This document shows positions 13,171 through 52,396 of a stretch of DNA of 64,000 bases, piece after piece. Under the pieces are notes generated by a model. It was not told where the DNA came from and did not search any database. It saw only the letters and a program-made list of their open reading frames with translations. Position 1 is the stretch's first letter. Every line of letters starts with the position of its first letter. The stretch is from a virus, in IMG/VR virus record IMGVR_UViG_3300009314_000008, positions 14,446 through 78,445 of that record. One strand, given 5' to 3'. The translations under genes were made by a program, and so were the position numbers.

Positions 13171-15116
13171 GTAACCTCCGACATCATTCGAGACACTCCG
13201 GTAATTCTATTCAACTGTCTTTCGCCCTCATCCATTTTGATTTTAATGTCCGCTACTTCTCTTACTAAGTCTGATCCTAATCCAACAATGTTCATCGCCG
13301 AGTCTATCGCTTGATTTACTGTCTTATCAAATGTTTCTTCTAACCTCTTGATAATTTTACTGGCTGTTTTTTGTATAGACCTTAATAGATCCTTTGATAT
13401 TTTTGGGTTGCCAAACGGGGGAATAATGCATTTTGCTATAATCATCCCTATTCCACCACCAAATATTATAGCATTCCCCACACTTATTTTATTCAAAAAA
13501 ATTTCAGCCTGCATAATCTTATTAAGCAGGGGCATTAAGCCCAGTTCCCGCAAAGAGCCAATAAGCCCATCGATATGAGGATCGGAATATCCCGTCAAAT
13601 CCTTTATGCCCGTTTTTATCGATGTTAAATATGCTATTCTATCATCAATAAGTTGATAGTAATAATCATAGGATGGTTGCCCCAACAGCATGTCCTTAAC
13701 AATATGAAGCCCCAATCCAAGAATAAAATTGATAGTAAAGTTAGGTTCGTCACCACCCCATTCAATATTATTCAGGATACTAACAGCCCTTGATAATTTT
13801 TCGGCATAATCTCTTTGTCCTTCTATTTTCTCCAAATCGTCAGCCACAATATTATCAACATATCGCAATTTTCTGTAAATGTCATAATATTTTTTCCATG
13901 CTTGGATACGATCCCGCATATTCCGGATAGTACATTTATCCGGGATAAGGTTTTTTATGGCATTAGATTTATTCTTTATATTAGAAATAATATCTGCCCT
14001 CTCTTTTTCATGCTTTCCTATCGTTTCTTGATCAGTATAGTCGGGCATCAATTTGTTTAACTGCTGAAGAATTTCAACTCCAGACAATACTTGCGATTGG
14101 GCACCAAACACCGTTAAGTCTCTACAACTACCATTCAGTCCATCTACCCACTCAAGAATATTCGGGTCATTATCAAAGGTAAAGAATGGTGCTACTGCAG
14201 ATTCACCCATATCCTTAAGCATTTTTTTTATATCTACCATTGATGATATAGATGGTGCTGTGACCGGTTCCTGATCATTAATCATTAATCGTACTTGTTC
14301 TGCAATCTTATCGGCATATATCACCATATCCCTTCCCGAATAATATCTCAATATCTCAAAATATGCTCTCAGGATACCAATAAACTCTCTTATAAGATAA
14401 TTACCAGACGCATCTAACAGCGAGGAAAGATTATCGGACATAAATTTTTTTATATCAATATCGGTTAATGCGGTTTTTATTGGCTTTTTTCTCTGTTTTT
14501 GGTATTCTTCGAGGTTTAATCCCTCTCCCAAAACTTCCTGTTCAAGTCTTTGTACTATCACTTCTTTAATAATCTCTAAAACTTTGGAGCTTATCCCCGT
14601 AGATTCTAATGAGAGAATATCCTTGAGAGCTTGGGCTTTTTTTTTGGCTGATTTTAAATTCCCCAGGATTATACTGCTGTTTGAGGATAATATCATATTG
14701 TTGATAGCGGCTTTTATCTGTGGTCTGATATGATTACATATTTCTTCAAGTTTCTTATATGGTCCCTCCGACATTTTGGATTTATTTTCAATTAATCTCA
14801 CGCGCGACTTAATCAAATTCAGTAGAGTTATCTCCCATGTGCATGATTCACGCACTAAATTTGCTTGATATTGTGCAATATATAATGCCCACGACAATGG
14901 ACTTATTGATCCGACAATATCATTAATTGCCTTTACAAATGCATCCCCAATATCGCCGAGATTCTCTATCGTATTCATTATCTCGCCAATGATTGGGCCT
15001 AGCCATAGCCCAAGAATCCCCAATCCAAGACTTACTATCCCAGATTTTTCTATCTGCTTTGATAGGTCTATAGCGTGTTTAAGATTAATAGCCTCTGATA
15101 GTGGGCAGTTCTGCAT
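13167..15116 (-). CDS. Hypothetical helical protein with hydrophobic segments
   Basis: 649 aa; Gly-rich hydrophobic stretches near both ends; within the baseplate operon. Confidence 0.5.
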   Translation of the reverse strand: MQNCPLSEAINLKHAIDLSKQIEKSGIVSLGLGILGLWLGPIIGEIMNTIENLGDIGDAFVKAINDIVGSISPLSWALYIAQYQANLVRESCTWEITLLNLIKSRVRLIENKSKMSEGPYKKLEEICNHIRPQIKAAINNMILSSNSSIILGNLKSAKKKAQALKDILSLESTGISSKVLEIIKEVIVQRLEQEVLGEGLNLEEYQKQRKKPIKTALTDIDIKKFMSDNLSSLLDASGNYLIREFIGILRAYFEILRYYSGRDMVIYADKIAEQVRLMINDQEPVTAPSISSMVDIKKMLKDMGESAVAPFFTFDNDPNILEWVDGLNGSCRDLTVFGAQSQVLSGVEILQQLNKLMPDYTDQETIGKHEKERADIISNIKNKSNAIKNLIPDKCTIRNMRDRIQAWKKYYDIYRKLRYVDNIVADDLEKIEGQRDYAEKLSRAVSILNNIEWGGDEPNFTINFILGLGLHIVKDMLLGQPSYDYYYQLIDDRIAYLTSIKTGIKDLTGYSDPHIDGLIGSLRELGLMPLLNKIMQAEIFLNKISVGNAIIFGGGIGMIIAKCIIPPFGNPKISKDLLRSIQKTASKIIKRLEETFDKTVNQAIDSAMNIVGLGSDLVREVADIKIKMDEGERQLNRITGVSRMMSEVT

Positions 15117-23237: not shown

Positions 23238-25280
23238 TCACACTATATAAATATAATTGTTTATTCTGTTGACTGGATAATAATGCTTTATTTCAACCTT
23301 GTTATCGACTTGATCTCTATTTACCACATTTGCAGCAACTCCAATTACTTTAAAGTCAGCCAAACATTCTATTTCATTAACAAACTTATATCTGATAGTA
23401 GCTAGATCGTTATTCAATTTTTTGATATATCTCCTATTTTTAGCCGAATTAGTTGCTTCGTGGGAGATGCTATTATCTACCCCTTTTGCCACATGTGGTC
23501 TAAGGGTTGATCTAATAGCCTGAGCAACGCTGACAGTCACGATTACTATTGATAACTCTTTTTTTTCAAGAATAGCCTGAGCGGTTGTTTTCTGATGATA
23601 AATACCAATAGGTGCCCCTTCCATTTCCTGGTGTAACATAAACCACCCAGAGTCTTTAATTGCCTCAAGTTGATTTATTGTGAAATAATTAATGGTAGGT
23701 AGCCAAGTAATCAAAGGAAGTGCATCATTAGTGAATACATAACCCAATATTTTTGAAGAGACATAACCGGCCACTATCACAGCAATATGATAACCAAATA
23801 GTTTTGTGTCTCCCATCATTGCATAATATGGACCACATAATACTACTCGCTGACTATCATAGCCATTTGGAACAGTAACCGCTGTATCTGCATCAGTTTG
23901 AGGAGTATATCCACTATCACAGAATAGACTATCCTGTGGCCAGGATAATACTTCCGCAGAAAGGTCTCCAAAGGTACTACCATAATCTTTATTGACAGTA
24001 AATGTGTCATTCGAAGTATCAACAGCAATAACATCAGACTCAACGGTTATTCCGCCATAAGTTGCAGAAAATACCATTCCGGCTTTAATGTCTGCGGCCT
24101 CGCCAGCCCCTATTGTAACCACTGTTTTTGATCCATCTGATGCCGCCGCAATTTCAGAGATAGTAAATTCATCTCCATCTTCTCCATAGGTAAGTCCGTT
24201 GCCCCCGTTTACTACTTTTTCCGAAATAAATACCTGTTTCTCACGTTTATAGTCTGTTCCGGACTGTGTCTCTGCCCAGGTTTTAAATCCGCTCAAAACC
24301 GTTTCATTGTCTGTTAGGGGAACTATAAAGAATGCGGTTGATACCCCATTAATTGACTCTTGGGCAGCAACCCAACTTGTATTAGCAGCCAATATCGTTG
24401 ATAATGCGTCGGTCCCATCAACAGGAATAGCATAAATCCTAAATTGATTGACTCCACCATTAGCGGCCAAATGTAAAAACGCACCAAAAGCCAGATTGCT
24501 GTCTGGGTCTTCTAGACTCTCCGATCCAAACTTATCCACGAGATCACCAACCGATGTAATGGTATAAAGTCCGCTAATGTCTGTTTTCTGAACTATAATA
24601 TCATAAAGGAGAACAGGACGTCTGACTTTCGGGGTATTCATGTTAGACCCAAGATAATCATACCATATGCTATCATCCACACTGGCAGCCAATGCCCCTG
24701 TTACAACCTCAACAAGAGTAAACTGGCTATTGCCCACATCAATAGACAATATCTCGTAATACTTATCATCGTCTCCATGATAAAAACATTGCCCAACCTC
24801 TAATAGCGACATAAATTTTGTTGCGTTTGAGCCTCCAACCGTAACTATTTCACCCCCAGCATCCATAGTATAGGTTAAATTAGCGCCACCATAGTTTTTG
24901 CCAATCTGTCGCAAGAAATCAGTTGAGAGGAACGTTATGGTCGCAATGCCATCATTATTATAATTTGTTTTACTGATAGTGGGGTTTGTGTTGAAATAAT
25001 ATGCTGTTGACATTTGAATAGCAGCAGGATCCTCTTCGCCAGCTTTTCTGATGAACAATTTCATGTCACCGTTTGCCTGCATTTTCTCAGCATCATTTAA
25101 TTTCATTTTATTGTCTTCTGTAGCGTCAATAGTCAGATCGCCTACCAATATCGGTCCATGATAAGTTTTTTTCGATACCCTCAATGGGACACCAACAACA
25201 ACGGCCCCTCTCGTGGGCGCGACCAGGCTACTCCCTTGTATTTGATATAGTATGTTTGTAAATACACCATTTCTACTCAT
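23238..25280 (-). CDS. Contractile tail sheath protein
   Basis: 680 aa; FIVPLT, HQKTT..ELSIV, C-terminal YYPVNRINNYIY sheath signature. Confidence 0.75.
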   Translation of the reverse strand: MSRNGVFTNILYQIQGSSLVAPTRGAVVVGVPLRVSKKTYHGPILVGDLTIDATEDNKMKLNDAEKMQANGDMKLFIRKAGEEDPAAIQMSTAYYFNTNPTISKTNYNNDGIATITFLSTDFLRQIGKNYGGANLTYTMDAGGEIVTVGGSNATKFMSLLEVGQCFYHGDDDKYYEILSIDVGNSQFTLVEVVTGALAASVDDSIWYDYLGSNMNTPKVRRPVLLYDIIVQKTDISGLYTITSVGDLVDKFGSESLEDPDSNLAFGAFLHLAANGGVNQFRIYAIPVDGTDALSTILAANTSWVAAQESINGVSTAFFIVPLTDNETVLSGFKTWAETQSGTDYKREKQVFISEKVVNGGNGLTYGEDGDEFTISEIAAASDGSKTVVTIGAGEAADIKAGMVFSATYGGITVESDVIAVDTSNDTFTVNKDYGSTFGDLSAEVLSWPQDSLFCDSGYTPQTDADTAVTVPNGYDSQRVVLCGPYYAMMGDTKLFGYHIAVIVAGYVSSKILGYVFTNDALPLITWLPTINYFTINQLEAIKDSGWFMLHQEMEGAPIGIYHQKTTAQAILEKKELSIVIVTVSVAQAIRSTLRPHVAKGVDNSISHEATNSAKNRRYIKKLNNDLATIRYKFVNEIECLADFKVIGVAANVVNRDQVDNKVEIKHYYPVNRINNYIYIV

Positions 25281-27712: not shown

Positions 27713-28720
27713 TTATTTAATTCGGATTCTCATCCTACAGATACCACGAGTGTCGCCAAATCCGTGACCGGTATATCTCCATGCACCCCAGATGAAATCA
27801 TCCCATTCCCATTTGGAATCAGATTTATCGCTTCCAATTTTGATGTTTTTACCCAAATAAGATGGATCTACAAACAAATAGATATCTGTATAGAGCTCGC
27901 CGCTATCACCTTCTTTATCAAAATAGTAAATAGTTTCATCATCATTTTTAAGGTCTGCCTTTATGGTTGTAATGACAGGAATATCCAGCAGGACTTTCTG
28001 CGCTATACCGTTTTTAAAAGTCTCTCCAGCAAGATTACCAACTTCACCAGCATCAAATGCAAGCATATCATTCCATGCAGTCTGAGACATCAACCATTTA
28101 GCAGGCACAAGTCCTTGTCGTGTGATATAGGACATTAGGTTCGTAAGATCTTTTTTTCTACCACTATTTGTCCAATCGATAGTATCAGTATATACTGTGG
28201 TGTCTCCACCAACATGATTACCCGTAATTGTCAATATGGAAGCAACATTCTTGATAAAGCCTAAATCTTGAGTTCGCCTTATTGCTTCGGCACCATTTTT
28301 CGTTACCATATCAACAAGATCGGAAGCAGAAGATGTTTCAAGTTCCAGCCATGGTTTTTTGTGCCGTTCTGTTTCAATTTTGCCGATCCATATCTTATAT
28401 TTTTTTGTGTCTACGAAAATGGGTTGGGTATCACCTCTTATAGAGACCTCGGCAGCGGTTGCTCCGATTTCCTTCTTGTCAAGTACGTAAAATACATCAG
28501 CATCTTCGGTCTCTTGAATACCCGGATCCTTCGGTGACATGGTTTTATTGACCAAGAGTTTCTCAGAGAAAGCCTCTTCCCTTACATATCTCTTGACGTA
28601 ATTTTCCAGAGAAGTTCCGAATTTCGTTATAAAATTATCTTTTGCCTCACGACCATTCATCGCAAGGTCTTGCAGAATATCGTTCGCCTCTTTTATTAAT
28701 TGTGTATTATCTATATTCAT
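27713..28720 (-). CDS. Major capsid protein (HK97 fold)
   Basis: 335 aa; YVREEAFSEKLL, EAIRRTQDLGFI, C-terminal GHGFGDTRGICR; follows scaffold/decoration genes; N-terminal LIKEA. Confidence 0.75.
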   Translation of the reverse strand: MNIDNTQLIKEANDILQDLAMNGREAKDNFITKFGTSLENYVKRYVREEAFSEKLLVNKTMSPKDPGIQETEDADVFYVLDKKEIGATAAEVSIRGDTQPIFVDTKKYKIWIGKIETERHKKPWLELETSSASDLVDMVTKNGAEAIRRTQDLGFIKNVASILTITGNHVGGDTTVYTDTIDWTNSGRKKDLTNLMSYITRQGLVPAKWLMSQTAWNDMLAFDAGEVGNLAGETFKNGIAQKVLLDIPVITTIKADLKNDDETIYYFDKEGDSGELYTDIYLFVDPSYLGKNIKIGSDKSDSKWEWDDFIWGAWRYTGHGFGDTRGICRMRIRIK

Positions 28721-31156: not shown

Positions 31157-33145
31157 TTATTTATCATATAGATTTTTCCACATCGATGCAATAATGCTAT
31201 CTCTATCTTCTATAGGATATTGCGTTATATCCATCCCATTAAAATCCATTCCATTTTTTATTAACATATCAAGTTCGGCATGCTTCCCTACCACTCCCTT
31301 AAGTATTACTTTTATTGCTTTTCGAGTATGGGGATTAGCGGTAAGCCCAGCAGCAATTCCAACCCCTCCAGGATTTTTGGCCACGAATTTTTCAACACCG
31401 CTGATATGTCTTCCCGATTTGGCTTTATTATAAACATGCCCAGCATATAAATAAGATGCCACGGGCAGCCCAACCAAGGTAGCTATATTCGTATATTTAG
31501 CAGATGTCTTAACCATATTATTACCCATTTCTTCCCGCGAATAGTTAAATAAACGCGAAGCCACCTCGCTGCCGACAATGGCGGCTATCCAGAGTTTTGG
31601 GTTACCTTTTATATTTTTAACAAGCGGGACAAGGTGTTTTCCTGCTTTTGTTTTCGACAACATATAGGTAGCAGCGATGGTTCCTAATATTCCAGGTAAG
31701 GGCGATTTATGATTTTTGGGCGGATCTAAATATGCATTAATTTCATTTGCCCTCTTTACCATCACGATTCTCTTGATCATGCATGGTCTATAATATGACC
31801 TTTGCATTAAAAACGGTTTTATGATATCAAAAATATTGTTATTAATTTTATCTGGAGAGAAGGTTATTCCTGGTAAGCATTCCCCAGATGTTGGAATTCC
31901 CTCTATTGTATCCGGAATAACTATTTTCTGTCTATCATATTCATCTGCATCATCTTTTTTCCCCATTTGAATTAAGATAATCCTCTGAAATTCCCGTGGA
32001 CGAGGGTATGCCCCCGCACTCAAGAATGTTGTCAGAATATCATCAATGGGATATTTTGCAATCTCACTTATTGTTCCCACCGGAAGATCCATTTCAGATG
32101 CTTTCAATTCCGGGACTATTTTTTCACCGATATAATTGTTAATCGCCATATGATCATCACTTAATACTTGGCCTTCTACCTCTTTTTCAATATCTGCCTT
32201 CTTATCTTCTGCCCTCTTGTTCTCGGAGGCTTTTTCTATTTCAATTAATTCTTCTTCTGTTATTCTGCCAGAGTCATCTTTGCTAGCAACCTTCTGCAGG
32301 ACATAACTGGATTTTTCAGCATTCGTTCCCACCTTACTTATATCGAAAAACTTAGGTCTCATATTGACCACAGAGACAACTATACCGGTTGAGGGCACCA
32401 TTCTACCCCTCATGTACTTCATATGGTCGCAATATTTGTTCAATGTTGAGTGAATCCCAACAGGACCTCTTCCGAGACTCTTCTTTTGTCCATCATCAGT
32501 TTCCTTGAATTCTTCGTCATTCAATTCAGTAATATATGACAAATCAACGCCATACTTTTTGCCAATCGCCTTTATCTCATCAATATCGCCGGAAATAGAT
32601 ATTTTGATCATTTCATTTTCCGGAATCTTGTAGAATTCTTTCCATTTAGGATGGCATACCCGACAAACATCATAAGGAACCCTCATGCCCATCGATGTCG
32701 GAATATGCTGGTGACTATCCAGCATCTGCTTCGTGTCCAAATCCTTCAGGGTATCCACCTCTGCAACTACCAGCACTCTGCCCATCATCTCATCCCATGT
32801 GGAGAAAATCACTCTACCGAACCCTTTGGCTGGGTCTTTATTCTCATGGCGATGAAAATAATGTGCCTTAAGGTAAGTTTTATACCCCCAATCATCCGTA
32901 GGATTACTTAGACTCATAGTTGGGAAGAAATCTGAATTACTATTTGCTCCCCAACACTCATCGGCAACCGCACTGATCAGCAAGAAGACCCTATTTTTTA
33001 CCGGCGTTATGTTCGCCACAAACTCCTGAGCATCTTTGGGCATGTAATTGTAATTAGCCACTTTCTCCATGCCATAAAAATTAATCGGCTGGACAGTGGG
33101 GTTCCCATTCTTATCGTAAGATGGGAGGTCAATATATTTGATCAT
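31157..33145 (-). CDS. Prohead (capsid maturation) serine protease with Zn ribbon and C-terminal membrane helices
   Basis: HRHENKD (His), TSMG (Ser), CRVC...CDH, FFDISKV..NAE pattern of HK97/assemblin-type proteases; upstream of scaffolds and MCP. Confidence 0.7.
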   Translation of the reverse strand: MIKYIDLPSYDKNGNPTVQPINFYGMEKVANYNYMPKDAQEFVANITPVKNRVFLLISAVADECWGANSNSDFFPTMSLSNPTDDWGYKTYLKAHYFHRHENKDPAKGFGRVIFSTWDEMMGRVLVVAEVDTLKDLDTKQMLDSHQHIPTSMGMRVPYDVCRVCHPKWKEFYKIPENEMIKISISGDIDEIKAIGKKYGVDLSYITELNDEEFKETDDGQKKSLGRGPVGIHSTLNKYCDHMKYMRGRMVPSTGIVVSVVNMRPKFFDISKVGTNAEKSSYVLQKVASKDDSGRITEEELIEIEKASENKRAEDKKADIEKEVEGQVLSDDHMAINNYIGEKIVPELKASEMDLPVGTISEIAKYPIDDILTTFLSAGAYPRPREFQRIILIQMGKKDDADEYDRQKIVIPDTIEGIPTSGECLPGITFSPDKINNNIFDIIKPFLMQRSYYRPCMIKRIVMVKRANEINAYLDPPKNHKSPLPGILGTIAATYMLSKTKAGKHLVPLVKNIKGNPKLWIAAIVGSEVASRLFNYSREEMGNNMVKTSAKYTNIATLVGLPVASYLYAGHVYNKAKSGRHISGVEKFVAKNPGGVGIAAGLTANPHTRKAIKVILKGVVGKHAELDMLIKNGMDFNGMDITQYPIEDRDSIIASMWKNLYDK

Positions 33146-35972: not shown

Positions 35973-36854
35973 TCAAGTAGGTCCACCAAAGTTTGCTCCA
36001 GAACACACACCTTCCGTACCTCGACTTTTAATGGATTTATTTGCTGATTGTATCCACCTTTTGGTTGCTTCCTTTAATACCCATGGACATAAAGCCTTCT
36101 TTTCTATAAGTAAATGCATAGATTTGCCCCGCGCCATCTTCAATATATTGGGATACGCTAATTTCTTAAACCAATCCGTTTTTGACACATCATCAAATGC
36201 TCTATTGATTGTTTTAGCAATTTCCTCATTGCCTCCTTTGTCGGGATGCACTTTCCTCATCGTTGCCCAATAAGCTTGTTTTACCTGACTTTTTGAGTTA
36301 ACTCCTTTCATCTTTAATCCGAAAGTACTTAAATTCTTTTTTATGGTAGCCTTTGGAATGTTCGGCGACCCTGAGTATTGTTGATATGCACGCCTGAAAC
36401 CATCATATGATGCGCCCCGCAATTTTGCGTGATTGTACGGGATAAAAGATCCTGCCAACATCCCTAATCGTATACCCACACCCACAGATTTTTTCAGTTC
36501 ATTTTTATTTCGTCGTGTTCTATTAGAATAAAATTGTTTAAATGTCGCTGATGGATTCTTTTTTTTATACCTTCCCCATTGGTTTTTAAGAGTACCAGCA
36601 TATGATAGCCCACCCCCTACTGCGCTACCTCCTCCTATTCTAATGGCCATTTGCCTCATAACCTCACTTTGTAGTGAAGCCTTTTTTGGAAGCCCCTTTC
36701 TCTTAGTTTTAGCAAATTCCCTGATTTTTTCTTTGGGCATTTTCTCGTATATCTGCCTAGCCGGACCATGTAATGCAGAGACTGGTATTTCGCCCTTTTT
36801 GGCTGCATAGACAAGTCCCATTAATTTTTGTTGGTTCTGACTGACACTGGGCAC
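35973..36854 (-). CDS. Polyprotein: DUF3008-like domain + Gly-zipper TMs + J-domain + leader-preceded small basic module (GTG start 36854; frame continues past TGA to 35901)
   Basis: PSVSQNQQKLMG...KKGE...EFAKTKRKGLP (DUF3008-like); HPDKGG; YPNILKMA and LCPWVLKEA linkers. Confidence 0.7.
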   Translation of the reverse strand: MPSVSQNQQKLMGLVYAAKKGEIPVSALHGPARQIYEKMPKEKIREFAKTKRKGLPKKASLQSEVMRQMAIRIGGGSAVGGGLSYAGTLKNQWGRYKKKNPSATFKQFYSNRTRRNKNELKKSVGVGIRLGMLAGSFIPYNHAKLRGASYDGFRRAYQQYSGSPNIPKATIKKNLSTFGLKMKGVNSKSQVKQAYWATMRKVHPDKGGNEEIAKTINRAFDDVSKTDWFKKLAYPNILKMARGKSMHLLIEKKALCPWVLKEATKRWIQSANKSIKSRGTEGVCSGANFGGPT

Positions 36855-36855
36855 G

Positions 36856-37572
36856 TTATTCTCCTGCATAGAATAATGGATTTATTCCAGCTTCAACTAA
36901 TACTGTTATTTTACCCGGATTAGACGCACCGCTGACTACTTGTATTTCAATGTCTGATTTACTCTCAACTATTATTGGTTCTTCTAAATCTATTTCTGCC
37001 ACTCCATTCAGGAGGGACACAGATAATTCCCGTTTAAATACTTTCCCAAAAGGTCTTACATTCAAAGACATAAGCGAACTCCCATCATCTGCACCCGCTT
37101 CTGACAGAATAATCTTTTTAATGAAGATCCTTTTCTTATTGGGCACTGTATAGAGAGCCATCTCACTCTTATTTTTTCCGGTTTCTATCATACCTCTAAT
37201 GTTGTTATCATTAGGTATTCCGCCTGTCGGAGCAGATTCGGTACCGATATATATGTCGCCAGCATTATTGGTGTCTCCTATATTCTCTATACTAAACACC
37301 CTTCTCCAAGAATTATCTTCTCCAATTTTTACCCCGGTTTGCCCCGAAGATGTAACCTCTACCTCTTGATAAACATAATTAGCATCTACCCCTGTCACTT
37401 TATAATCCTGATCATCTCCGTTATCAGAGCTGGACAAATATAATGTTTCTGATACAGAACCATAAATATATTCCATATTATGTGGCCAAACAAGTTGATT
37501 TACATCTGTTGTCAGATTCCCAGCATATCCTTTTATTTTTATAGGTTTCATACCCGCGAATACTTTGCTCAT
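36856..37572 (-). CDS. Virion structural protein (beta-rich)
   Basis: LYLSSSDNGDD, GVDANY, NAGDIYI, YTVP, KSDIEI pattern common in phage structural proteins. Confidence 0.5.
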   Translation of the reverse strand: MSKVFAGMKPIKIKGYAGNLTTDVNQLVWPHNMEYIYGSVSETLYLSSSDNGDDQDYKVTGVDANYVYQEVEVTSSGQTGVKIGEDNSWRRVFSIENIGDTNNAGDIYIGTESAPTGGIPNDNNIRGMIETGKNKSEMALYTVPNKKRIFIKKIILSEAGADDGSSLMSLNVRPFGKVFKRELSVSLLNGVAEIDLEEPIIVESKSDIEIQVVSGASNPGKITVLVEAGINPLFYAGE

Positions 37573-41979: not shown

Positions 41980-43599
41980 TTATTTTTTTACTCTATATTC
42001 TAATTCGTCAAAATGGTATTTCTTCACTAATCTCAATATAACCAAATTCTGGAAAAAGTCATCTGTGCCTGACTTCCCATATCTGATTTTTCTTTTTCCA
42101 GTATCGTGATATCGATAGACGTTTGTCAAGTCTTTTGCATATTCTGAGGTCTCCCCAGGATATTTTGCAAATTTGTATTCACCTTTTCTCACAATATCGT
42201 CTATTAATCCAGTCATTACCGTTGATCTCGCCATTACCCATTTCTCGAATTCTGGATAATATGCCACCTTCTCAGCCAACTCTCCTACATATTCAAATTC
42301 CATCGTCCTCTTAAAACCAAGTATTTCTATTATCCGGATATTTTCTTTGTGCCCAGCACCATAATCCATTCCGAGAATCAATACATTAAAGTGGTTTACC
42401 CAATAGACAACATCGTTAATTATATCATCTGGAGATCCATCTTCTCCCTTTCCATAATATCTTCTGACGAAATTTATATTAATCTTGCGCGACCCAGGAT
42501 CGTATGATCCTATCGTGAGCATGGTATAGGACTTTATTTTCGACAATTTTTTCCGCGGGTCATCTTCTACAGCCCAATCCAATGCCGCAAAAGAATACTC
42601 CTTCATTTTTTTAGTAATTTCAGAAGGATCTTTTACGTATTCCCTATCGCTATCGCATAAATATACTACCCTCTGCAATGTTATAGGATGTATATTGTCT
42701 GAAAATGATAACCCTAGAACTTCATTATGGAAATCAACCTCATCTTTTTTATTATAATCGTATAAAATTGTATCCCAATCTGAAGCAAAGGGTGCTTCGG
42801 GGGGGATCATCAACTCGTTAATTGAAAATCCCTCGAAAGGTCTTCCGGGATGCGCCTCTACCCATTCTCCCCACCATGTGCTAATTCTCTTATGACATTT
42901 TTCGCAGATAATACCCTTAAGACCCATATTCTTTATGCCAAGCCCGACATTCCAATGGCCGCATGCCCTACATTTAATCGCCCATTCACATCCTGTTGAA
43001 TCATCGAATGTCGTTTGGATTCTATTCTCCGGTTGCATCGGCGTTCCCGTCTTAAGCATATATTTATATTTAGACCTTTTCAGCGCAAACTCAACAATAC
43101 TAGCGTGCTGTTCAGGAGTATCTTGCATCTCGTCCTCAATATAGCAATCACCGATAATTCCCCGAGCAGATAGTGGCGACACATAAATATTAGCTAAGAG
43201 TATTCTTGAGCCGGTCAAGTAGGATTTGTTTTTTACTTGTCTTTCGTTTAAACGAGGGTCGTAATAAATAACATCCGTGACCACAGAATCCCGGTTAATC
43301 CCCTTCAGAATGTCTGTTGAAAACCGACTCACCTGGGCATCGGTAGGTAAGGTTATAATAGTATTAAAATATTTATGTTCAATCGCGAATCCGGTAGCAA
43401 GAATTGCGGCATTTGTTGATTTGGCTACTTTACGCGAACATTTTAGAATCACCCGGCGTTGAACTTGAGGAGATTCAAGGGTAAATCGAGAAGTATTAAT
43501 TATAGGTATCCAAAAGGGTAAATATTTGAAAGAGAGGGCATCTCCATCAAGTTTAAACCATGCTTGGTATAAATCGCTCCGAGTTATTGCTTTATTCAT
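41980..43599 (-). CDS. terL: Terminase large subunit (lambda gpA-like)
   Basis: KCSRKVAKST Walker A, DEMQD Walker B, TGTP, CxxC..CxxC, NEVLG, RNase H acidic residues ALDWA/MDYG/DDFFQ. Confidence 0.85.
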   Translation of the reverse strand: MNKAITRSDLYQAWFKLDGDALSFKYLPFWIPIINTSRFTLESPQVQRRVILKCSRKVAKSTNAAILATGFAIEHKYFNTIITLPTDAQVSRFSTDILKGINRDSVVTDVIYYDPRLNERQVKNKSYLTGSRILLANIYVSPLSARGIIGDCYIEDEMQDTPEQHASIVEFALKRSKYKYMLKTGTPMQPENRIQTTFDDSTGCEWAIKCRACGHWNVGLGIKNMGLKGIICEKCHKRISTWWGEWVEAHPGRPFEGFSINELMIPPEAPFASDWDTILYDYNKKDEVDFHNEVLGLSFSDNIHPITLQRVVYLCDSDREYVKDPSEITKKMKEYSFAALDWAVEDDPRKKLSKIKSYTMLTIGSYDPGSRKININFVRRYYGKGEDGSPDDIINDVVYWVNHFNVLILGMDYGAGHKENIRIIEILGFKRTMEFEYVGELAEKVAYYPEFEKWVMARSTVMTGLIDDIVRKGEYKFAKYPGETSEYAKDLTNVYRYHDTGKRKIRYGKSGTDDFFQNLVILRLVKKYHFDELEYRVKK

Positions 43600-43865: not shown

Positions 43866-44155
43866 TTCATTCTCCTCTTTATTATAGATATCAAATCGCT
43901 TGCATCTCTTTTTAATTTCTTAACCATCTTTATCTGCCTAGCCTTTTCAAATTTCTTTGCCTGTCTCATGTAGTTAACCTGATAAGGGATTGCCTTGACT
44001 TGTAGTTTTATTGATCTGACAGGGTAGTATCTTCTATATTTAGAAAGGTCGTTAATAAAATTATGAGAGAATATTGCTTTAGTCATTGCTTTGGTAGACG
44101 CTCTCCCTAACAATGTTGAAGTTAAGGCTTCTTTAATTATCCCTGGACATCTCAC
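43862..44155 (-). CDS. Leader-bearing basic helical protein
   Basis: MRCPGIIKEA; ATGA/GTGA coupling on both sides. Confidence 0.7.
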   Translation of the reverse strand: MRCPGIIKEALTSTLLGRASTKAMTKAIFSHNFINDLSKYRRYYPVRSIKLQVKAIPYQVNYMRQAKKFEKARQIKMVKKLKRDASDLISIIKRRMK

Positions 44156-45999
44156 AACAAATCCTCCCCATAAATTTTTAACTTTTTATATAGTATTTTC
44201 TTTATCTTTGGCATATTTAATGGAATCTTATCTTTCATTTTATTTAATGTCTTCAATCCAAAAGCACTTGCTTCCGCTTCTGATAAATACTCGTTCATAG
44301 CAGTAGGCTTCTTCCAATATTTCTGGTTATATGTTTGTTTCTTAAGAATATCCAATAATCCTTTTTTGCTCTTCACAGCATGCCCCAGTTCGTGAGACAA
44401 CACTGCTGCCGGCTCATTTTTTCTTGGAAGCATAGAGACGATCTTCCTGACAGCAACATTTTTCACTTTAGGAATAGATATAGATAAATCATTTCCTCTA
44501 CCTTTGAGAAATTGCCCGCCACGCAGCAATCTAATATAATCTCTTACCCCAATATCTGAGTTGACTCCCCCATATTCTATATTGAGCATTCTCTTAAGAG
44601 TGGGATTGATCTTTTTAAGTGGGATGAAATGCCTCTCTATAGGAATCTTGTGCGCCTTTATTTCTCGAAGTAAAGGTCTTAATTTAAGTATAGACCTTAG
44701 GGAAGACTTTTTTTGTAAAATGCTGGGGCAATTCATTGTTTTTCCCACTTTAAAAAGTTTTTGTTTATTTAGAGGACTTCCGGTTCTACCCTTCATAGTC
44801 CATTCCTTGAATTGCTCTACGGTCATCGCCGTGATCGGTCCACATTTCCATCCCTTCTCATAATTAGCGAGATATGTTTTTCTAGCCTCATCTTCAGTGA
44901 GTGCCCCGAGGATACACTTGTGTTCATCGAATTTACCGTTCTTGTCTACTTGATCAATTACATACACTATCTGACTTTCTGGATGACTTCCTATGAACAC
45001 ATCAATTTTGTCCCCATCTTTCCCATCCTGTGCATTAGAGATGTATCCATAATCATATTTCATCTTTATTGACCACGATTTACCATCTGGGTCAGTTCCG
45101 GATCTCGTTGATCCCTTTGGGTTCTCCAATTTAATAGTCAGTCCATTCCACTTGAATGACCCTTTTTTGTAGTTCTCGGCTTTTATTTGGGCATCTGATG
45201 GGTTAATGTTGGTATCTTTTCGAGCCCTATTTATATCTCCGGTCATTGTTGCTATTTTAATATTATTGGGCATTCTGTCATTTAACGCCTCCCTCATTGC
45301 TCTGTATGAATCTTTTTTAATGTTACGTTTCATGTCCAAGTTTGTAGGGAATGCCTTATAGTTAGTAATATCAAAGTCTATTAAAGTGTTTCCTATTGTG
45401 TTTTGAGCGGTAGTATCTCTAAGATGAGGAAACCTTTTTTTAATATTCTTATAGTCCGACTTGTTTATTATATTTGCATTAATTATTTTATGAACTTTTT
45501 CTCTTGCCTTGTTTATAGAAATTATTCTTTTTTGCCATCTAATTTTTTCTGCTACTGTCCCCTCTCTTGGATACTCATTAGGGACCATATTTTTTTTTAT
45601 TATTGCCGCTTTATCAGAAATTTTTCTCCCCTTAATGTATTCATAATATCCAATCCCTTTATTTCTCTTTACCATTTTCGCTACAGGAATACCCTTTTTG
45701 TGCATTAACTTCCTCGCTTTATTCCATACCTTATGCTCCATTGCCTGAGCTTTATATATTCCTATAATATCGCTTGCAGATTTTCTGTCTATTAAAGGTA
45801 TTTTTCTAACAGCTTTTCCAATACCTTCTGTGAATACGAGGTCGGCGATCCTGAAAGCTCCTCTACCTAATGGCTTTATCGTCCTGTCTTTATACCCAGC
45901 TTCCGCCAGTCTTTTAAGCGACTCTCTTCCTAATTTCCCAGACCTCACCATCTTAACCCATCTTGGAGAAGCTCTCTTCAGTATTACAGGACAATTCAT
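44152..45999 (-). CDS. Polyvalent protein: protein kinase-like domain + InPase domain + HExxH zinc metallopeptidase, each preceded by a leader
   Basis: LGRGAF, AVRK, EH, YYEYIKG, DTTAQN, LIDFD; then NYKKG..ENPKGS.RSG...YGY..DGD.IDVF...FDEHK; then HELGH...EAEASAFG. Confidence 0.8.
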   Translation of the reverse strand: MNCPVILKRASPRWVKMVRSGKLGRESLKRLAEAGYKDRTIKPLGRGAFRIADLVFTEGIGKAVRKIPLIDRKSASDIIGIYKAQAMEHKVWNKARKLMHKKGIPVAKMVKRNKGIGYYEYIKGRKISDKAAIIKKNMVPNEYPREGTVAEKIRWQKRIISINKAREKVHKIINANIINKSDYKNIKKRFPHLRDTTAQNTIGNTLIDFDITNYKAFPTNLDMKRNIKKDSYRAMREALNDRMPNNIKIATMTGDINRARKDTNINPSDAQIKAENYKKGSFKWNGLTIKLENPKGSTRSGTDPDGKSWSIKMKYDYGYISNAQDGKDGDKIDVFIGSHPESQIVYVIDQVDKNGKFDEHKCILGALTEDEARKTYLANYEKGWKCGPITAMTVEQFKEWTMKGRTGSPLNKQKLFKVGKTMNCPSILQKKSSLRSILKLRPLLREIKAHKIPIERHFIPLKKINPTLKRMLNIEYGGVNSDIGVRDYIRLLRGGQFLKGRGNDLSISIPKVKNVAVRKIVSMLPRKNEPAAVLSHELGHAVKSKKGLLDILKKQTYNQKYWKKPTAMNEYLSEAEASAFGLKTLNKMKDKIPLNMPKIKKILYKKLKIYGEDLL

Positions 46000-46011
46000 T
46001 TAATACCTCTT

Positions 46012-46896
46012 TTAGTGGCGTTTTTTAAAATATTCAGATGCTTCGGGGTTACTTTTATAGAGTTGGAACCTGTATTTCCTTCTTAGGTATTTCATACGTA
46101 ACTCATCTAATTTTCTTGGAGACTTAAATACATACTTCCTTGTCTTCGGGCTCCTCATCATGCGAAATCTTCTCGTGAGCGGACCCCTAATAAGTGCATT
46201 AAATGCTTTTCCTGAAACATCCGCCGCATTCGTGACGAGTCGTCCCGACACCGCTGTTTTCGGTATATAAGGTGCTCTCTCATATGCAAGTTTACTGAAC
46301 CACCCTGAGTTTTTAATGGATGTCCATGCTCCCACCACTTCTTTCATAATATCCTCCGAACCACCTTTATCAGGGTGGCTTTTCATTGCTGCTGCTCTAA
46401 AAATCTTTTTTACCTGAGCCTTAGTCTTTACTGACGATTTATTAATGTTTAGCGTTTTAATTGCTTTATCTAAATTTCCGCTCTTTACCGCGAACCCACC
46501 TAAGTTTTTAAAGTATTCATAATATTTTTTATTTAAATCTTCCCACATTGCCCGGTTCATCCTTCCTCTTATGTTTTCTGCTGCTCCATTAAGCCCTCTT
46601 CTTATGTTTTCTGCTGCTTCATTAAGCCCTCTCATTCTTCTTTTATGCCGATACACCGATGGTCCTATTGCCATCCCCACAAGAGCTCCCCCAATAGCTG
46701 TCCCTATTGCGGCATCTTTAAGATCCTTACCGGATTTCGTCTTTATGTATTGCCCAAAAGATAATCTGTTTTTTCTCCCACCCCGCACATACTTATTGTA
46801 GTTTCGGTGTCCTTGCCATAAACTTGCCCCACCGAGCATTCCACCCAATGTGCCGCAGGTGGCAGTAGTTCCAGCTATTGTCTTAAATGCTCCCAT
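46012..46896 (-). CDS. Gly-zipper TM + J-domain protein with C-terminal leader-preceded module
   Basis: GTLGGMLGG, GTAIGGALVG; HPDKGG; WFSKLAY..APYIPKTA; paralogous to 35973..36854. Confidence 0.75.
   Translation of the reverse strand: MGAFKTIAGTTATCGTLGGMLGGASLWQGHRNYNKYVRGGRKNRLSFGQYIKTKSGKDLKDAAIGTAIGGALVGMAIGPSVYRHKRRMRGLNEAAENIRRGLNGAAENIRGRMNRAMWEDLNKKYYEYFKNLGGFAVKSGNLDKAIKTLNINKSSVKTKAQVKKIFRAAAMKSHPDKGGSEDIMKEVVGAWTSIKNSGWFSKLAYERAPYIPKTAVSGRLVTNAADVSGKAFNALIRGPLTRRFRMMRSPKTRKYVFKSPRKLDELRMKYLRRKYRFQLYKSNPEASEYFKKRH
46567..46632. repeat. 33-bp in-frame tandem duplication
   Basis: Two copies of TCTTATGTTTTCTGCTGCTYCATTAAGCCCTCT with one mismatch (RGLN[EG]AAENIR x2). Confidence 0.9.
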
Positions 46897-46984: not shown

Positions 46985-47107
46985 CTATTTAACAAACACC
47001 CATTCGATTACAACAGTGCCTGAACAGTTTAGATCACCATCTGGATGCCAATGCCATAACCCTCTATCTTCAACATCGGCAATTTTCAATATTTTAGGAC
47101 ATTTCAT
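46985..47107 (-). CDS. 40-aa leader-bearing micro-ORF (not in ORF track)
   Basis: MKCPKILKIADVEDRGLWHWHPDGDLNCSGTVVIEWVFVK; its end matches the end of 48470..49105. Confidence 0.6.
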   Translation of the reverse strand: MKCPKILKIADVEDRGLWHWHPDGDLNCSGTVVIEWVFVK

Positions 47108-47146
47108 TTGTTCGCCTACTTTAAATAATTTTTGTTCATTAATATG

Positions 47147-48214
47147 TTATCTTATCTTCCTGATAATTCCTGAAATAAATTTTCTCGCCTTTATGGGCAC
47201 TTTTTTATAGTTTTCTGCCTTAATCTGTGCTTCTGACGGATTAGCATTAGTTGCTTTGCGAGCACTGGCAATATCTGATAACATCCCGGAGAATTTTATC
47301 ATAGCATTTTTTTTGATTTGATTCACTCCATTTTTATCTTTATTTTTTGCTTCTCTAATTCCAGCGGCAACCAAAGCCCCTCCTAATATAACGGAGGGTA
47401 TTATTTTATTTTTGTTTCTGCTGAAATATCCAGGAAACGTTTTCTTATAGTTTTCAGTCGTACGCATTCCATTAGCAAACGCTTTATAAGTATCACGATA
47501 ATGCTTGGATGGTCCTCTATCCATTGTATAAGTTTGGGGTCCTAGAATATCAAAGTCTACTAGCGTTCTATCAACAAGATTTCTATTCGTCATATCATAT
47601 ATTCTCGGATATTTTCTTTTTATTTTTCGCATGGTTTTAGCATCTATAGGTGATTTATTAAGAATCCTTAACATCCTTAATTTAGCATTCTTTACCCGAA
47701 TTCTCCTAACTCTATCACCCTGCTTTCCATATTCGTCTAGTTTATTAAATAATTTTTTTGCTTTATTAGCAACGCTCCTACCTTTAACATGCTCATAATA
47801 TCCTATTGGGCCATCTTGTTTTATCAATCGAGGAACCTTTATCTTCTTTTTTGACAAATATTTTTGCACTTTATTCCATACAAAATGTTCCTTTGCTTGG
47901 CTATTATATGGCTCATGAATATAATATTTCGACACCCCCTCTATATTAGGTATTTTTCTAACAGCTTTACCCACCCTACTAGTAAATACCAAGTCAGAGA
48001 CTCTTGTTCCTCCCACTCCAAGATGTTTTATTGTCCTATCTTTATATCCAGCATTTGCAAGAATTTTTAATGCCTTCTCACTTAATTTGCCTGACCTTAT
48101 CATCTTGATCCATTTGGGAGACGAATACTTCTCTATTGCAGATATCTTAATTATTGTTGGAAGCATACTTATTCTCCTAATTCCCGATGTTTTTATGATA
48201 CAAGGGCATTTCAT
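47147..48214 (-). CDS. Leader-bearing protein kinase-like protein + TM helix + truncated InPase stub
   Basis: MKCPCIIKTS; LGVGG, AVRK, EH, YYEHVKG, DMTNRN, LVDFD; ends NPSEAQIKAENYKK. Confidence 0.75.
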   Translation of the reverse strand: MKCPCIIKTSGIRRISMLPTIIKISAIEKYSSPKWIKMIRSGKLSEKALKILANAGYKDRTIKHLGVGGTRVSDLVFTSRVGKAVRKIPNIEGVSKYYIHEPYNSQAKEHFVWNKVQKYLSKKKIKVPRLIKQDGPIGYYEHVKGRSVANKAKKLFNKLDEYGKQGDRVRRIRVKNAKLRMLRILNKSPIDAKTMRKIKRKYPRIYDMTNRNLVDRTLVDFDILGPQTYTMDRGPSKHYRDTYKAFANGMRTTENYKKTFPGYFSRNKNKIIPSVILGGALVAAGIREAKNKDKNGVNQIKKNAMIKFSGMLSDIASARKATNANPSEAQIKAENYKKVPIKARKFISGIIRKIR

Positions 48215-50383: not shown

Positions 50384-52396
50384 TTATTCGCCCTTTATAT
50401 CAGAAATCAACCCTGTTATTGCCTTAAAAGCCTTCGTTAATATTGGTTCAGACAAATGTGTTTTTGACATTCTGGACAATAATAAGACATTCCCTATTTT
50501 ATTTAGCGTTTTACTCAGCAGTTCCAACAGTTCTTCTGAATTTACGATATTTTTTTTATCAGCATATTCTGCGGAAATCAGTCCATTAATGACATTCTCT
50601 ATTTCGGCATCTTTTTCAATTGGCCATTCTCGCCAAAGAATCGATGCTGTTTTGATAAAATCCCCTCTATATTTATCCATAGCAGACAAGTCCACATAGT
50701 GTTTTGGTTCTATGTCTTTAATATTTCCAGCATATTTTGACAAATAAATATCACTAGGATCATAGTCTTCTATTCTGTCAGCGTTTTGCCCAGTAAAGTA
50801 ATTGGCAACCAGGAGTGAAGCCTCTTTTTTCATAGTTTCATCAAAAATCTTCCTACTTCCATTGCGAACCGTCACCCTGTATTCATCCATGTCAACCATC
50901 TCAATAGCTGTTTTGATAGGATAATCTGTTTGGATATTTTTCATAATGTCTGACACTTGAGATTTGATTTTTGAATCCTTGATTCTTTTCCCGGGAAGAA
51001 ATATGGGGCGATAATATTCCGGCAAAAGATATATATCCCTGCCCGGTCTAACAATCGCCCCTAGTCCTTGAGCAATCATTTTTTCAGTGTCCGCTTTAGT
51101 CACTTTATCAATACCGCTATTTAACCATACTGTCGCATGACTACCATCATGATATGATTTTAAATAATAGAGAACTATTTCGCGTCCATCTTTTGCGAGT
51201 CGTGTTTTTGTTACCTCTTCTACTCTATATGGGAGGGTTATTGTCCTGCTGGCTTCAAATATTATATCCTTGCCTTGAACATTTTGTAGATCAACAGGTG
51301 TCATTCCACCGAAATAATAGCCCTGCGACTTGGTTTTTAAATTTTCATAATCGTCTGACCCACCATATACCTCGCCATAAATCCATTCTCGTGGGTCATT
51401 CGTTTCGTGAAGGGCAGAGGTATTTTCAGAAACAGCCAACGCTCTAGATTTTCCTGTCTCCCATATTTTTAATGGGTCGGTTACGACAACACCTCTTTTT
51501 CCAATCCCATTAAATAATATATATTGATAATTCCCCGATTCCGTTATCTTTTTGATTTTGGGCATATCCTTTAACTGTTTATCCAGTATCATTGATACAT
51601 ATTTGGTTGTTCTATTATCAAGGCAATCAGAATCAGAATTAGAATCATATACACACCCCCCTTCAACAAATCCAGCAATTTTATTAAAATCTTCTGCAGA
51701 CATTTCAAACCTTTCTATTTTATATTTACCATCAGAGGCTTGTTTTAACATAATTCCAGAAAAATGATATGGTTTTTCTGGAATTTCTCTCCTCTTTATC
51801 ACTAATATTCTGTCTTCATCATTTTTACCCTTTGCTACCCCCTCCTTAATAAGATTCTCAATATTTTCTGGCAATTTTACACCCCTGCTATCTAACAAAT
51901 TTCTTACCCTTGCAACAGTGGATATTGTGGCTGCTACTTTTATGCCCGTCTGGTCACTAACATCAAATAATCCCCCTTCTGTAAGAAATTCTATCTCATC
52001 AGAAACATCATTAGTCTCTTCAGTTTGCCCCATTTCCTGATTCTTCTCCACTTCAGATAATATAAAAGACTCCGATATGGGAATAACTTTATTCTGGTAT
52101 ATCGCTGCGTCAATATCTTTGAGGATGTTGTTTTCAATTATCACTGGGATAGTCATCGATGTATTACCTTCCATCCATACTATTGATCCAATAGCATCCC
52201 CAGTTGACTCATCTATCTTATTATATTTAACTTCCTTTAATCCTGCCGTCAAAAATGGATATTTATTTGAGATGTATTCTCTTATCTCTTCTCTCCATTG
52301 ATCTGGGCGGTCATTCGTTAAATCCAAAACAGCCGTCTTGACAACTATGTCTTTAAATACATCGTTTGCATTTAGTGGATCTTTAAAAAATTTCAT
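50384..52396 (-). CDS. KxA-rich internal head protein
   Basis: VKTA, KVA, KQA, KTA, KEA, KYA, KTA motifs; start of head module. Confidence 0.55.
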   Translation of the reverse strand: MKFFKDPLNANDVFKDIVVKTAVLDLTNDRPDQWREEIREYISNKYPFLTAGLKEVKYNKIDESTGDAIGSIVWMEGNTSMTIPVIIENNILKDIDAAIYQNKVIPISESFILSEVEKNQEMGQTEETNDVSDEIEFLTEGGLFDVSDQTGIKVAATISTVARVRNLLDSRGVKLPENIENLIKEGVAKGKNDEDRILVIKRREIPEKPYHFSGIMLKQASDGKYKIERFEMSAEDFNKIAGFVEGGCVYDSNSDSDCLDNRTTKYVSMILDKQLKDMPKIKKITESGNYQYILFNGIGKRGVVVTDPLKIWETGKSRALAVSENTSALHETNDPREWIYGEVYGGSDDYENLKTKSQGYYFGGMTPVDLQNVQGKDIIFEASRTITLPYRVEEVTKTRLAKDGREIVLYYLKSYHDGSHATVWLNSGIDKVTKADTEKMIAQGLGAIVRPGRDIYLLPEYYRPIFLPGKRIKDSKIKSQVSDIMKNIQTDYPIKTAIEMVDMDEYRVTVRNGSRKIFDETMKKEASLLVANYFTGQNADRIEDYDPSDIYLSKYAGNIKDIEPKHYVDLSAMDKYRGDFIKTASILWREWPIEKDAEIENVINGLISAEYADKKNIVNSEELLELLSKTLNKIGNVLLLSRMSKTHLSEPILTKAFKAITGLISDIKGE

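Follow-up and report, generated by a model that had tools for sequence, protein, structure and literature searches.

Phage P1 packs the large, multi-domain anti-restriction proteins of its Dar system (DarB, DdrB) into its head and injects them. In phage T4, the capsid-targeting sequence (CTS), which consists of the first 10 residues, is sufficient for packaging and is removed by the prohead protease gp21 (PMC9026906, PMC3012670). Phage polyvalent proteins combine unrelated enzyme domains in one chain encoded beside virion genes; their components include InPase (inorganic pyrophosphatase-like) domains, kinases without a C-lobe, which also occur as stand-alone versions, and zincin peptidases, which are thought to process the chain (PMC5512222). 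Polyvalent proteins are known as a class; their assembly and disassembly are mostly a matter of conjecture. The subject of this study is an open reading frame (ORF) of 615 amino acids (aa) on the minus strand (44152..45999) of a 64,000-nucleotide (nt) stretch of viral DNA (positions 14,446 to 78,445 of IMG/VR record IMGVR_UViG_3300009314_000008; the window). This single open frame encodes a short leader peptide, a kinase-like module, an InPase domain, an internal copy of the leader and a module with an HExxH motif, all of which, with the junctions between them, lie on the minus strand. By its domain content and location, the 615-aa protein is a small phage-type polyvalent protein. The favored reading, to which a probability of roughly 0.55 is given, goes further: we infer that the protein is virion cargo assembled from leader-tagged cassettes.

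The kinase-like and InPase modules, together with the HExxH module, stand in one ORF directly upstream of the large terminase gene, and in this the locus is like known phage polyvalent proteins. The 615-aa protein differs from those proteins in being much smaller (PMC5512222). In addition, its modules are bounded by a short shared leader that also heads many single-module genes, a feature that this source does not appear to describe. Another difference lies in the families involved. Neither the profile of Kinase-PolyVal (PF18762), compared with the whole assembly at E ≤ 10, nor that of MPTase-PolyVal (PF18818), compared with the genome at E ≤ 10, gave a match. Since these Pfam models fail, the kinase-like and HExxH modules are not members of the two polyvalent families. 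The kinase-like module resembles the Kinase-PolyVal clade only in the loss of the C-lobe (PMC5512222).

Evidence for how the chain arose comes from the junction between the kinase-like module and the InPase domain. A first-pass annotation of this DNA described three cargo genes fused with a leader kept before each domain. Leaders 1 and 3 are indeed true copies, and the first two parts do exist separately elsewhere, but the proposed second leader, MPNNIKIA (residues 242-249; 45253..45276), does not qualify as a copy when read in the frame of the ORF. It is the in-frame shadow of a hidden leader that lies one base off, and it keeps I-K-I-A, with only K-I-A common to the two peptides. The hidden leader is encoded in the +1 frame by a mini-ORF (ATG..MTECPIILK..TAG; 45252..45281), which is the native start of the InPase gene. 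In the alignment, MTECPIILK falls opposite the leaders with which the stand-alone InPase proteins P0037, P0038 and P0042 begin. A Shine-Dalgarno (SD) sequence, GAGGGAGG, lies within the ORF 6 nt before the +1-frame ATG (45288..45295); its duplex with the anti-SD has an energy of −11.8 kcal/mol, stronger than those of the 47 annotated starts tested and of all 396 internal in-frame ATGs. Within the mini-ORF, a run of four adenines (A4; 45255..45258) marks the place where a single base separates the fused ORF from two overlapping genes. With a run of five, the same DNA would encode a 257-aa kinase gene and a 376-aa gene starting MTECPIILKIATMTGDINRARK, overlapping by 56 nt. The one-base difference at leader 2 is thus what creates the kinase-InPase fusion.

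Gene context in relatives, drawn from the metagenome-scan contigs L004-L006, indicates the direction of the change. In L005 the kinase and InPase genes are adjacent, and the TGA of the kinase gene overlaps the leader ATG of the InPase gene (ATGA). Given that relatives have separate leader-tagged genes, the kinase-InPase fusion is a derived state, reached by a single-base difference, and this fusion history is well supported by the sequence comparison. Within the limits of the data, an assembly error at the A4 run was considered and rejected. Logan contigs from three samples (all from one study, two of them at 2-3x depth, and contigs rather than raw reads) carry an identical 615-aa ORF. These contigs were built independently and cover the A4 run without an indel, so the fused state is not peculiar to this assembly.

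The junction between the InPase domain and the C-terminal module is of a different kind. The sequence KQKLFKVGKT is followed in frame by leader 3, MNCPSILQKKS (residues 412-432 together; 44704..44766). Leader 3 itself occupies residues 422-432 and has one extra residue (ILQKKS versus ILKxS); the third segment of the first-pass annotation, MNCPSILQKKSS, does begin at residue 422, with its ATG at 44736. The in-frame order of InPase, LFKV and leader recurs in the homologues P0037 (..QELFKVAI-MKCPRMIYKTA..), P0038 (..QKLFKVGY-LKCPEIIKVK) and P0039 (..QELFKVSM-IKMPAILSKA..), with a variant junction in P0043, and the sequence that follows the leader differs in each of the four. Judged from these homologues, the third junction is an old and conserved one. 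In P0038 and P0039, the internal leader starts with Leu or Ile rather than Met. The ribosome-binding site before the ATG at 44736 is weak (−4.8 kcal/mol), and 17% of internal ATGs score as well. The Met-less internal leaders and the weak site before 44736 argue that ribosomes pass through the internal leader, which exerts its effect on the protein and is not mainly a site of restart. As a separate observation, P0038 ends right after its internal leader (..LFKVGYLKCPEIIKVK, stop), which would fit loss of the downstream module or its shift into another frame.

The leader has the consensus M-[KNR]-C-P-x-I-[ILV]-K-x-[AS]. It opens about 10 neighboring ORFs and lies inside a few others; about 13 copies occur on the contig with the 615-aa ORF, and copies are found in the relatives L001-L006 as well. 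Leader 1 of the ORF, MNCPVILKRA (residues 1-10; 45970..45999), matches the consensus, and the SD duplex before it has an energy of −7.1 kcal/mol. Counted by the strict pattern CP-x-[ILVM]-[ILV]-K-x-[AS], 11 copies lie on the coding strand of 21 kb of the contig and 6 in all six frames of the remaining 2.62 Mb of the assembly, an enrichment of about 450-fold in the 21-kb head-gene block. The copies differ in synonymous codons, which argues that selection acts on the peptide. For the same reason, the possibility that the leader is conserved as a DNA element, such as a promoter or recombination site, was rejected as unsupported. Variants include MKRPLIIKEA, MRTPEIIKEA, IKMPAILSKA and MSAPVIIKSA. 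Across them Pro4, the hydrophobic pair, Lys8 and Ala/Ser10 are constant, Cys3 and position 9 vary, and position 9 is Glu in only about half of the copies. Lys8 is invariant in 26 of 26 kinase-family sequences.

Other contigs of uncultured phages have the leader too, in some cases inside ORFs or without Met. Back-translation of the pattern retrieved two IMG/VR contigs with the same leader, one of which has a homologous terminase gene, the same gene order, and internal and tandem leaders. Another protein of the phage studied here contains a Met-less internal leader, KLACPIVLKEA, that is conserved in L001. A wider motif, a hydrophobic pair followed by K, x and [AS], has 31 occurrences among 8070 residues of head-block proteins, compared with about 9 expected by a rough estimate from composition. 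One instance, LIKEA, falls at residues 8-12 of the putative major head protein (27713..28720), where it could end a short propeptide with the same K-x-A core. A 670-aa protein (50384-52396, minus strand) and its 665-aa homologue (L003:297-2294) have a conserved [WF]-I-K-T-A-S-I near residue 580, another candidate cut site. Two further observations concern the leader in relatives. A 97-aa ORF (L003:3326-3619) has MRTPEIIKEA twice, in tandem. In L005 (231-290), the leader of the kinase gene reads MKCPGLIAK, a TAA stop and ASSKWIKMVR, with the nonsense codon exactly at the variable position 9; a change from GAA to TAA would explain this, and the kinase body could restart at a downstream Met.

There are parallels between this leader and the CTS of T4 internal proteins IPI-III and Alt. 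In both cases, a peptide of about 10 residues is found on otherwise unrelated proteins of the head block with diverse, fast-evolving payloads, and the I-K-E-A at the end of the commonest leader here is similar to the site cut by gp21, [L/I]-x-E. The leader differs in that position 9 is variable while Pro4, Lys8 and Ala/Ser10 are conserved, and in that copies occur inside ORFs at the borders of modules. The two peptides look unrelated in sequence, and we take their relation to be one of analogy. On present evidence, then, we infer by analogy that the leader may work like the T4 CTS.

The first-pass annotation called the N-terminal domain kinase-like, and its fold and catalytic residues bear this out. 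Searched exhaustively with phmmer against 1.84 billion representatives, the module (residues 11-241; 45277..45969) has 35 relatives (representative clusters, E ≤ 1e-3). An alignment of 26 sequences shows no variation at G45, G47, K66 and D208 and at least 90% conservation at D195 and N200; these residues correspond to the Gly-loop, the beta3 Lys, the D-x4-N catalytic loop and the DFx Asp of protein kinases. An AlphaFold2 (AF2) model built on this alignment has a mean confidence (pLDDT) of 87.7 and matches RIO2, PRPK/Bud32, DYRK2 and CK2 in Foldseek (E about 1e-4, probability 1.0). A VIA-align scan, independent of Foldseek, gave Z scores up to 7.4, a moderate value, over residues 35-217; its 50 listed rows are mostly protein and aminoglycoside kinases, with short helical matches (50-51 residues) making up the remainder. 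Since little sequence remains beyond the DFD motif, most of the C-lobe is missing, and the module is predicted to be a minimal protein-kinase-like domain. It shares the Gly-loop, the beta3 Lys, D-x4-N, the DFx Asp and a very short C-lobe with RIO2, Bud32/PRPK and Shigella OspG, but differs from them in lacking a sequence-level match to any kinase family, with a structural Z of about 7 that is only moderate.

At the sequence level, no model of Pfam, PHROG or NCBIfam covers residues 1-241. Pfam kinase families (Pkinase, RIO1, Kdo and others) do not match the 615-aa protein at E ≤ 1, no kinase family match was found among the 26 members of the kinase-like family, and its profile found nothing meaningful among PDB sequences. 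The kinase-like family is absent from the current domain libraries Pfam, PHROG and NCBIfam. Two of its members weakly match Pfam FTA2 (E = 0.0027). Leader-tagged, stand-alone versions of 241-256 aa exist (P0001, P0002, L004, the last of 256 aa). The closest homologue, P0001, is a stand-alone protein of 241 aa with the leader MKCPMIIKEA, and it ends where MPNNIKIA begins. Distant homologues without Cys-Pro still have [FL]-x-K-x-[AS] right before a conserved (A/S)PRW.

The assignment of the middle domain as InPase in the first-pass annotation is confirmed by the match of residues 269-401 (44797..45195) to Pfam PF18823 (E = 1e-50; 171.5 bits against a cut-off of 26.8; profile positions 1-134 of 135). 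In alignment A3, made with the nearest InPase homologues, all 45 invariant columns are kept, including ENPxGSxRSG, YGY, DxDxxD and KFDE. The homologue search covered proteins of 102-328 aa and yielded the stand-alone, leader-bearing InPase proteins P0037, P0038 and P0040-P0042; the nearest of the stand-alone homologues begin MNCPRTIIKQAGLKADIVQARK, MKCPGIIKEALLKSDIAAARR and similar. The stretch also matches PHROG families described as virion structural, minor head and DarB-like antirestriction protein. This DarB-like match is a likeness to the P1 Dar system, although the similarity is confined to the InPase region, and no DarA/Hdf-like loading partners were identified at the locus.

The C-terminal module (residues 422-615; 44155..44736) contains HELGH at residues 536-540 and EAEASAFG at residues 574-581, as the first-pass annotation reported in calling it a zinc peptidase. 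The motifs are thus present, while the family call depends on them and on sub-threshold Pfam matches: Peptidase_M91 at E = 9.4e-5 (23.3 bits, below the cut-off of 25) and M48 at E = 0.029 (14.6 bits, below 20.3). A Pfam comparison of each segment, proposed to verify the three-domain description, matched the InPase segment but found no kinase family for the first segment and nothing above the cut-off for the last. E574 and E576, possible third metal ligands, stand 34-36 residues after HELGH, in a region whose helices are predicted by a poor model only; this single-sequence AF2 model (pLDDT 50.9) is too poor for a fold search. Word-index searches for relatives of the module returned only its own copy, and there was no match in PHROGs, NCBIfam or PDB sequences. 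In the ESM Atlas, its nearest clusters are unnamed viral ones at 0.91, followed by M78 and U49 at 0.84-0.85. The module can be considered a possible peptidase only.

The locus is carried on a 134.6-kb contig that is part of a 2.76-Mb marine metagenome bin, and the strings quoted in the first-pass annotation are all present in one uninterrupted minus-strand ORF of 615 aa. The neighboring genes are all on the same strand. The large terminase gene lies directly downstream (41980..43599; PHROG 675, E = 1e-40), and further along are weak matches to a major head protein (27713..28720, minus strand; PHROG 2522, E = 1.6e-5) and a tail sheath (23238..25280). These matches indicate that the setting is the head/packaging block of a tailed phage. 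The ORF sits in a variable island of leader-tagged genes between a 334-aa gene and the terminase gene; the counterpart of this island in L003 has small leader proteins only. No homologue of the 615-aa protein was found in the related phage fragments L001 and L003 or in 12 related bacterial genomes. Among deposited phage genomes no close relative was found, and neither the large terminase protein nor the kinase alignment A2 retrieved a relative when searched against IMG/VR.

Upstream of the ORF is a paralogue (47147..48214, minus strand) that is 41% identical to the kinase part. It consists of tandem leaders, a kinase-like domain, a linker and the first InPase residues, followed by a deletion and a stop. 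It starts MKCPCIIKTS, with a second leader, ..MLPTIIKISA, 16 residues on (48118-48214), and it retains the InPase beginning ..AQIKAENYKK, the rest of the domain being deleted. Thirteen codons past its stop, the same-frame sequence ..QKLFKVGEQ precedes a 40-aa ORF, MKCPKILKIA.. (46985..47107, minus strand), which is a remnant of the InPase-leader junction. Three instances of the order kinase, InPase, leader are thus known: the main copy, the paralogue and L005. The Logan contigs of the source run break at 44791-44797, about 55 nt upstream of leader 3, possibly because of a repeat common to the paralogue junction near 47110-47140. Two other genes of the minus strand, 46012-46896 and 35973-36869, encode a pair of paralogues; both have Gly-zipper segments and a J-domain-like motif, HPDKGG, with a match to Pfam DnaJ below the cut-off (E about 1e-4). 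The second also has an N-terminal DUF3008 and an internal leader copy, ALCPWVLKEA, after the J-domain.

These observations lead to the following proposal for the origin and fate of the protein. Comparison with relatives shows that the kinase-like and InPase genes stood side by side, each with a leader of the form M-x-C-P-x-I-[ILV]-K-x-[AS], and that the InPase frame already extended past a second leader to a third module of variable sequence. In this phage lineage, an A-run shorter by one base just after the InPase leader brought the InPase body into the kinase frame, giving the 615-aa ORF; the old start of the InPase gene, with its ribosome-binding site, ATG and leader, was left behind in the +1 frame. 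The N-terminal leader may take the protein into the prohead in the manner of T4 capsid targeting, where the head maturation protease would trim it at the K-x-[AS] core. The protease would probably also cut the internal leader before the HExxH module, and possibly the residual I-K-I-A. In this way a kinase, a pyrophosphatase-like enzyme and a putative peptidase would enter the host together with the DNA. The release of three effectors by the prohead protease, which the first-pass annotation also proposed, is thus predicted by analogy with T4. Two points fit cleavage at K-x-[AS]: the excess of the motif in proteins of the head block and the LIKEA of the major head protein. The candidate prohead protease, proposed to be the cutter, is the N-terminal part (about 300 aa) of the product of 31157..33145 (minus strand). 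Of the named clusters in the ESM Atlas, those closest to it are Peptidase_S77 and S78 (score 0.90-0.91); it has no match in Pfam, PHROG or PDB sequences.

Several points weigh against this proposal. Packaging and cleavage are predictions for an uncultured phage, and the protease gene, identified through a language model, is only a lead. The origin of the samples that agree at the A4 run in a single study, two of them at low depth, weakens the argument. The HExxH module is only weakly peptidase-like. Lastly, the commonest leader in related phages ends in K-E-A, while the sites here are KRA, KIA and QKKS, the last of them in a leader with an extra residue; these sites have no Glu, so a Glu-specific protease of the T4/phiKZ type would not cut them.

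The features of the cut sites are also the basis of an alternative in which the 615-aa chain is packaged or acts uncut, as one multi-enzyme protein, its N-terminal leader alone being active and its internal leaders being scars of fusion. Apart from I-K-I-A, leader 2 lies out of frame, leader 3 is degenerate, and none of the three sites has the K-E-A found in most leaders of related phages. In addition, unprocessed polyvalent proteins have precedents in the packaged virion RNA polymerase of N4 and in ArdC, which is transferred by conjugation (PMC5512222). This alternative seems unlikely, however, given that the in-frame InPase-leader junction is kept in several relatives with different downstream modules, which argues for a working signal and not a scar, and that Met-less internal leaders such as KLACPIVLKEA are present in other proteins of the phage. 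Cleavage might instead be carried out by the protein itself, with the C-terminal HExxH module, and not the prohead protease, processing the chain in the capsid or after injection. Autoproteolysis by the zincin domains of polyvalent proteins was proposed by Iyer et al. (PMC5512222), and HELGH with the downstream EAEASAFG helix motif and the matches to M91 and M48 are consistent with such an activity. Self-processing is nonetheless improbable. The M91 match is below its cut-off, MPTase-PolyVal is absent from the genome at E ≤ 10, and the model of the module is poor; moreover, the same leader is found on about a dozen proteins without a peptidase, so a common trans-acting cutter is the simpler explanation.

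The modules could also be separated at the level of translation, with starts at the ATG at 44736 and at the +1 ATG at 45281, the latter combined with a −1 slip. The hidden start at 45281 has the strongest ribosome-binding site of those tested, and a −1 slip of tRNA-Lys on A_AAA_UAG would rejoin the InPase frame and yield MTECPIILKIATM.., a perfect leader. The third module of the paralogue is a separate ORF after a stop. A stimulatory RNA structure downstream of the slip site was not found (z = −0.81), which leaves a programmed −1 frameshift unsupported. Relatives have leader and InPase in one frame, which indicates that frameshifting is not conserved. The site before 44736 is weak, and the internal leaders of P0038 and P0039 have no Met. 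Translational separation is thus about as improbable as self-processing. Finally, the leader might be unrelated to the capsid and serve in membrane insertion, secretion or modification, with the protein acting in the infected cell. Many leader-bearing proteins are small, with Gly-zipper, membrane-like segments. The leader, however, has no lipobox and too little hydrophobicity for a signal peptide, it is confined to the head/packaging gene block, a related motif is found at the N-terminus of the major head protein, and other phages place InPase in virion proteins. These data make a role outside the capsid very improbable, and virion cargo built from leader-tagged cassettes remains the favored reading.

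This locus makes three stages of the assembly of a polyvalent protein available for comparison: separate leader-tagged genes in relatives, a one-base fusion with the old start intact, and a conserved junction of domain, leader and module. The locus contributes this comparative series of gene, fusion and junction states, together with an uncatalogued kinase-like family. A broader model, tentative and at somewhat less than even odds, is that the leader is a portable signal for capsid loading and cutting, active at N-termini and at internal positions alike. Cassettes would then normally be fused and split again, as in the one-base frame change seen here, when this phage clade builds and remodels its polyvalent cargo proteins, and the head protease would separate the enzymes again. 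If the leader is a loading and cutting signal, it would provide a simple rule for spotting virion cargo in uncultured phages, and a 10-residue tag that could be tested for the packaging of foreign proteins.

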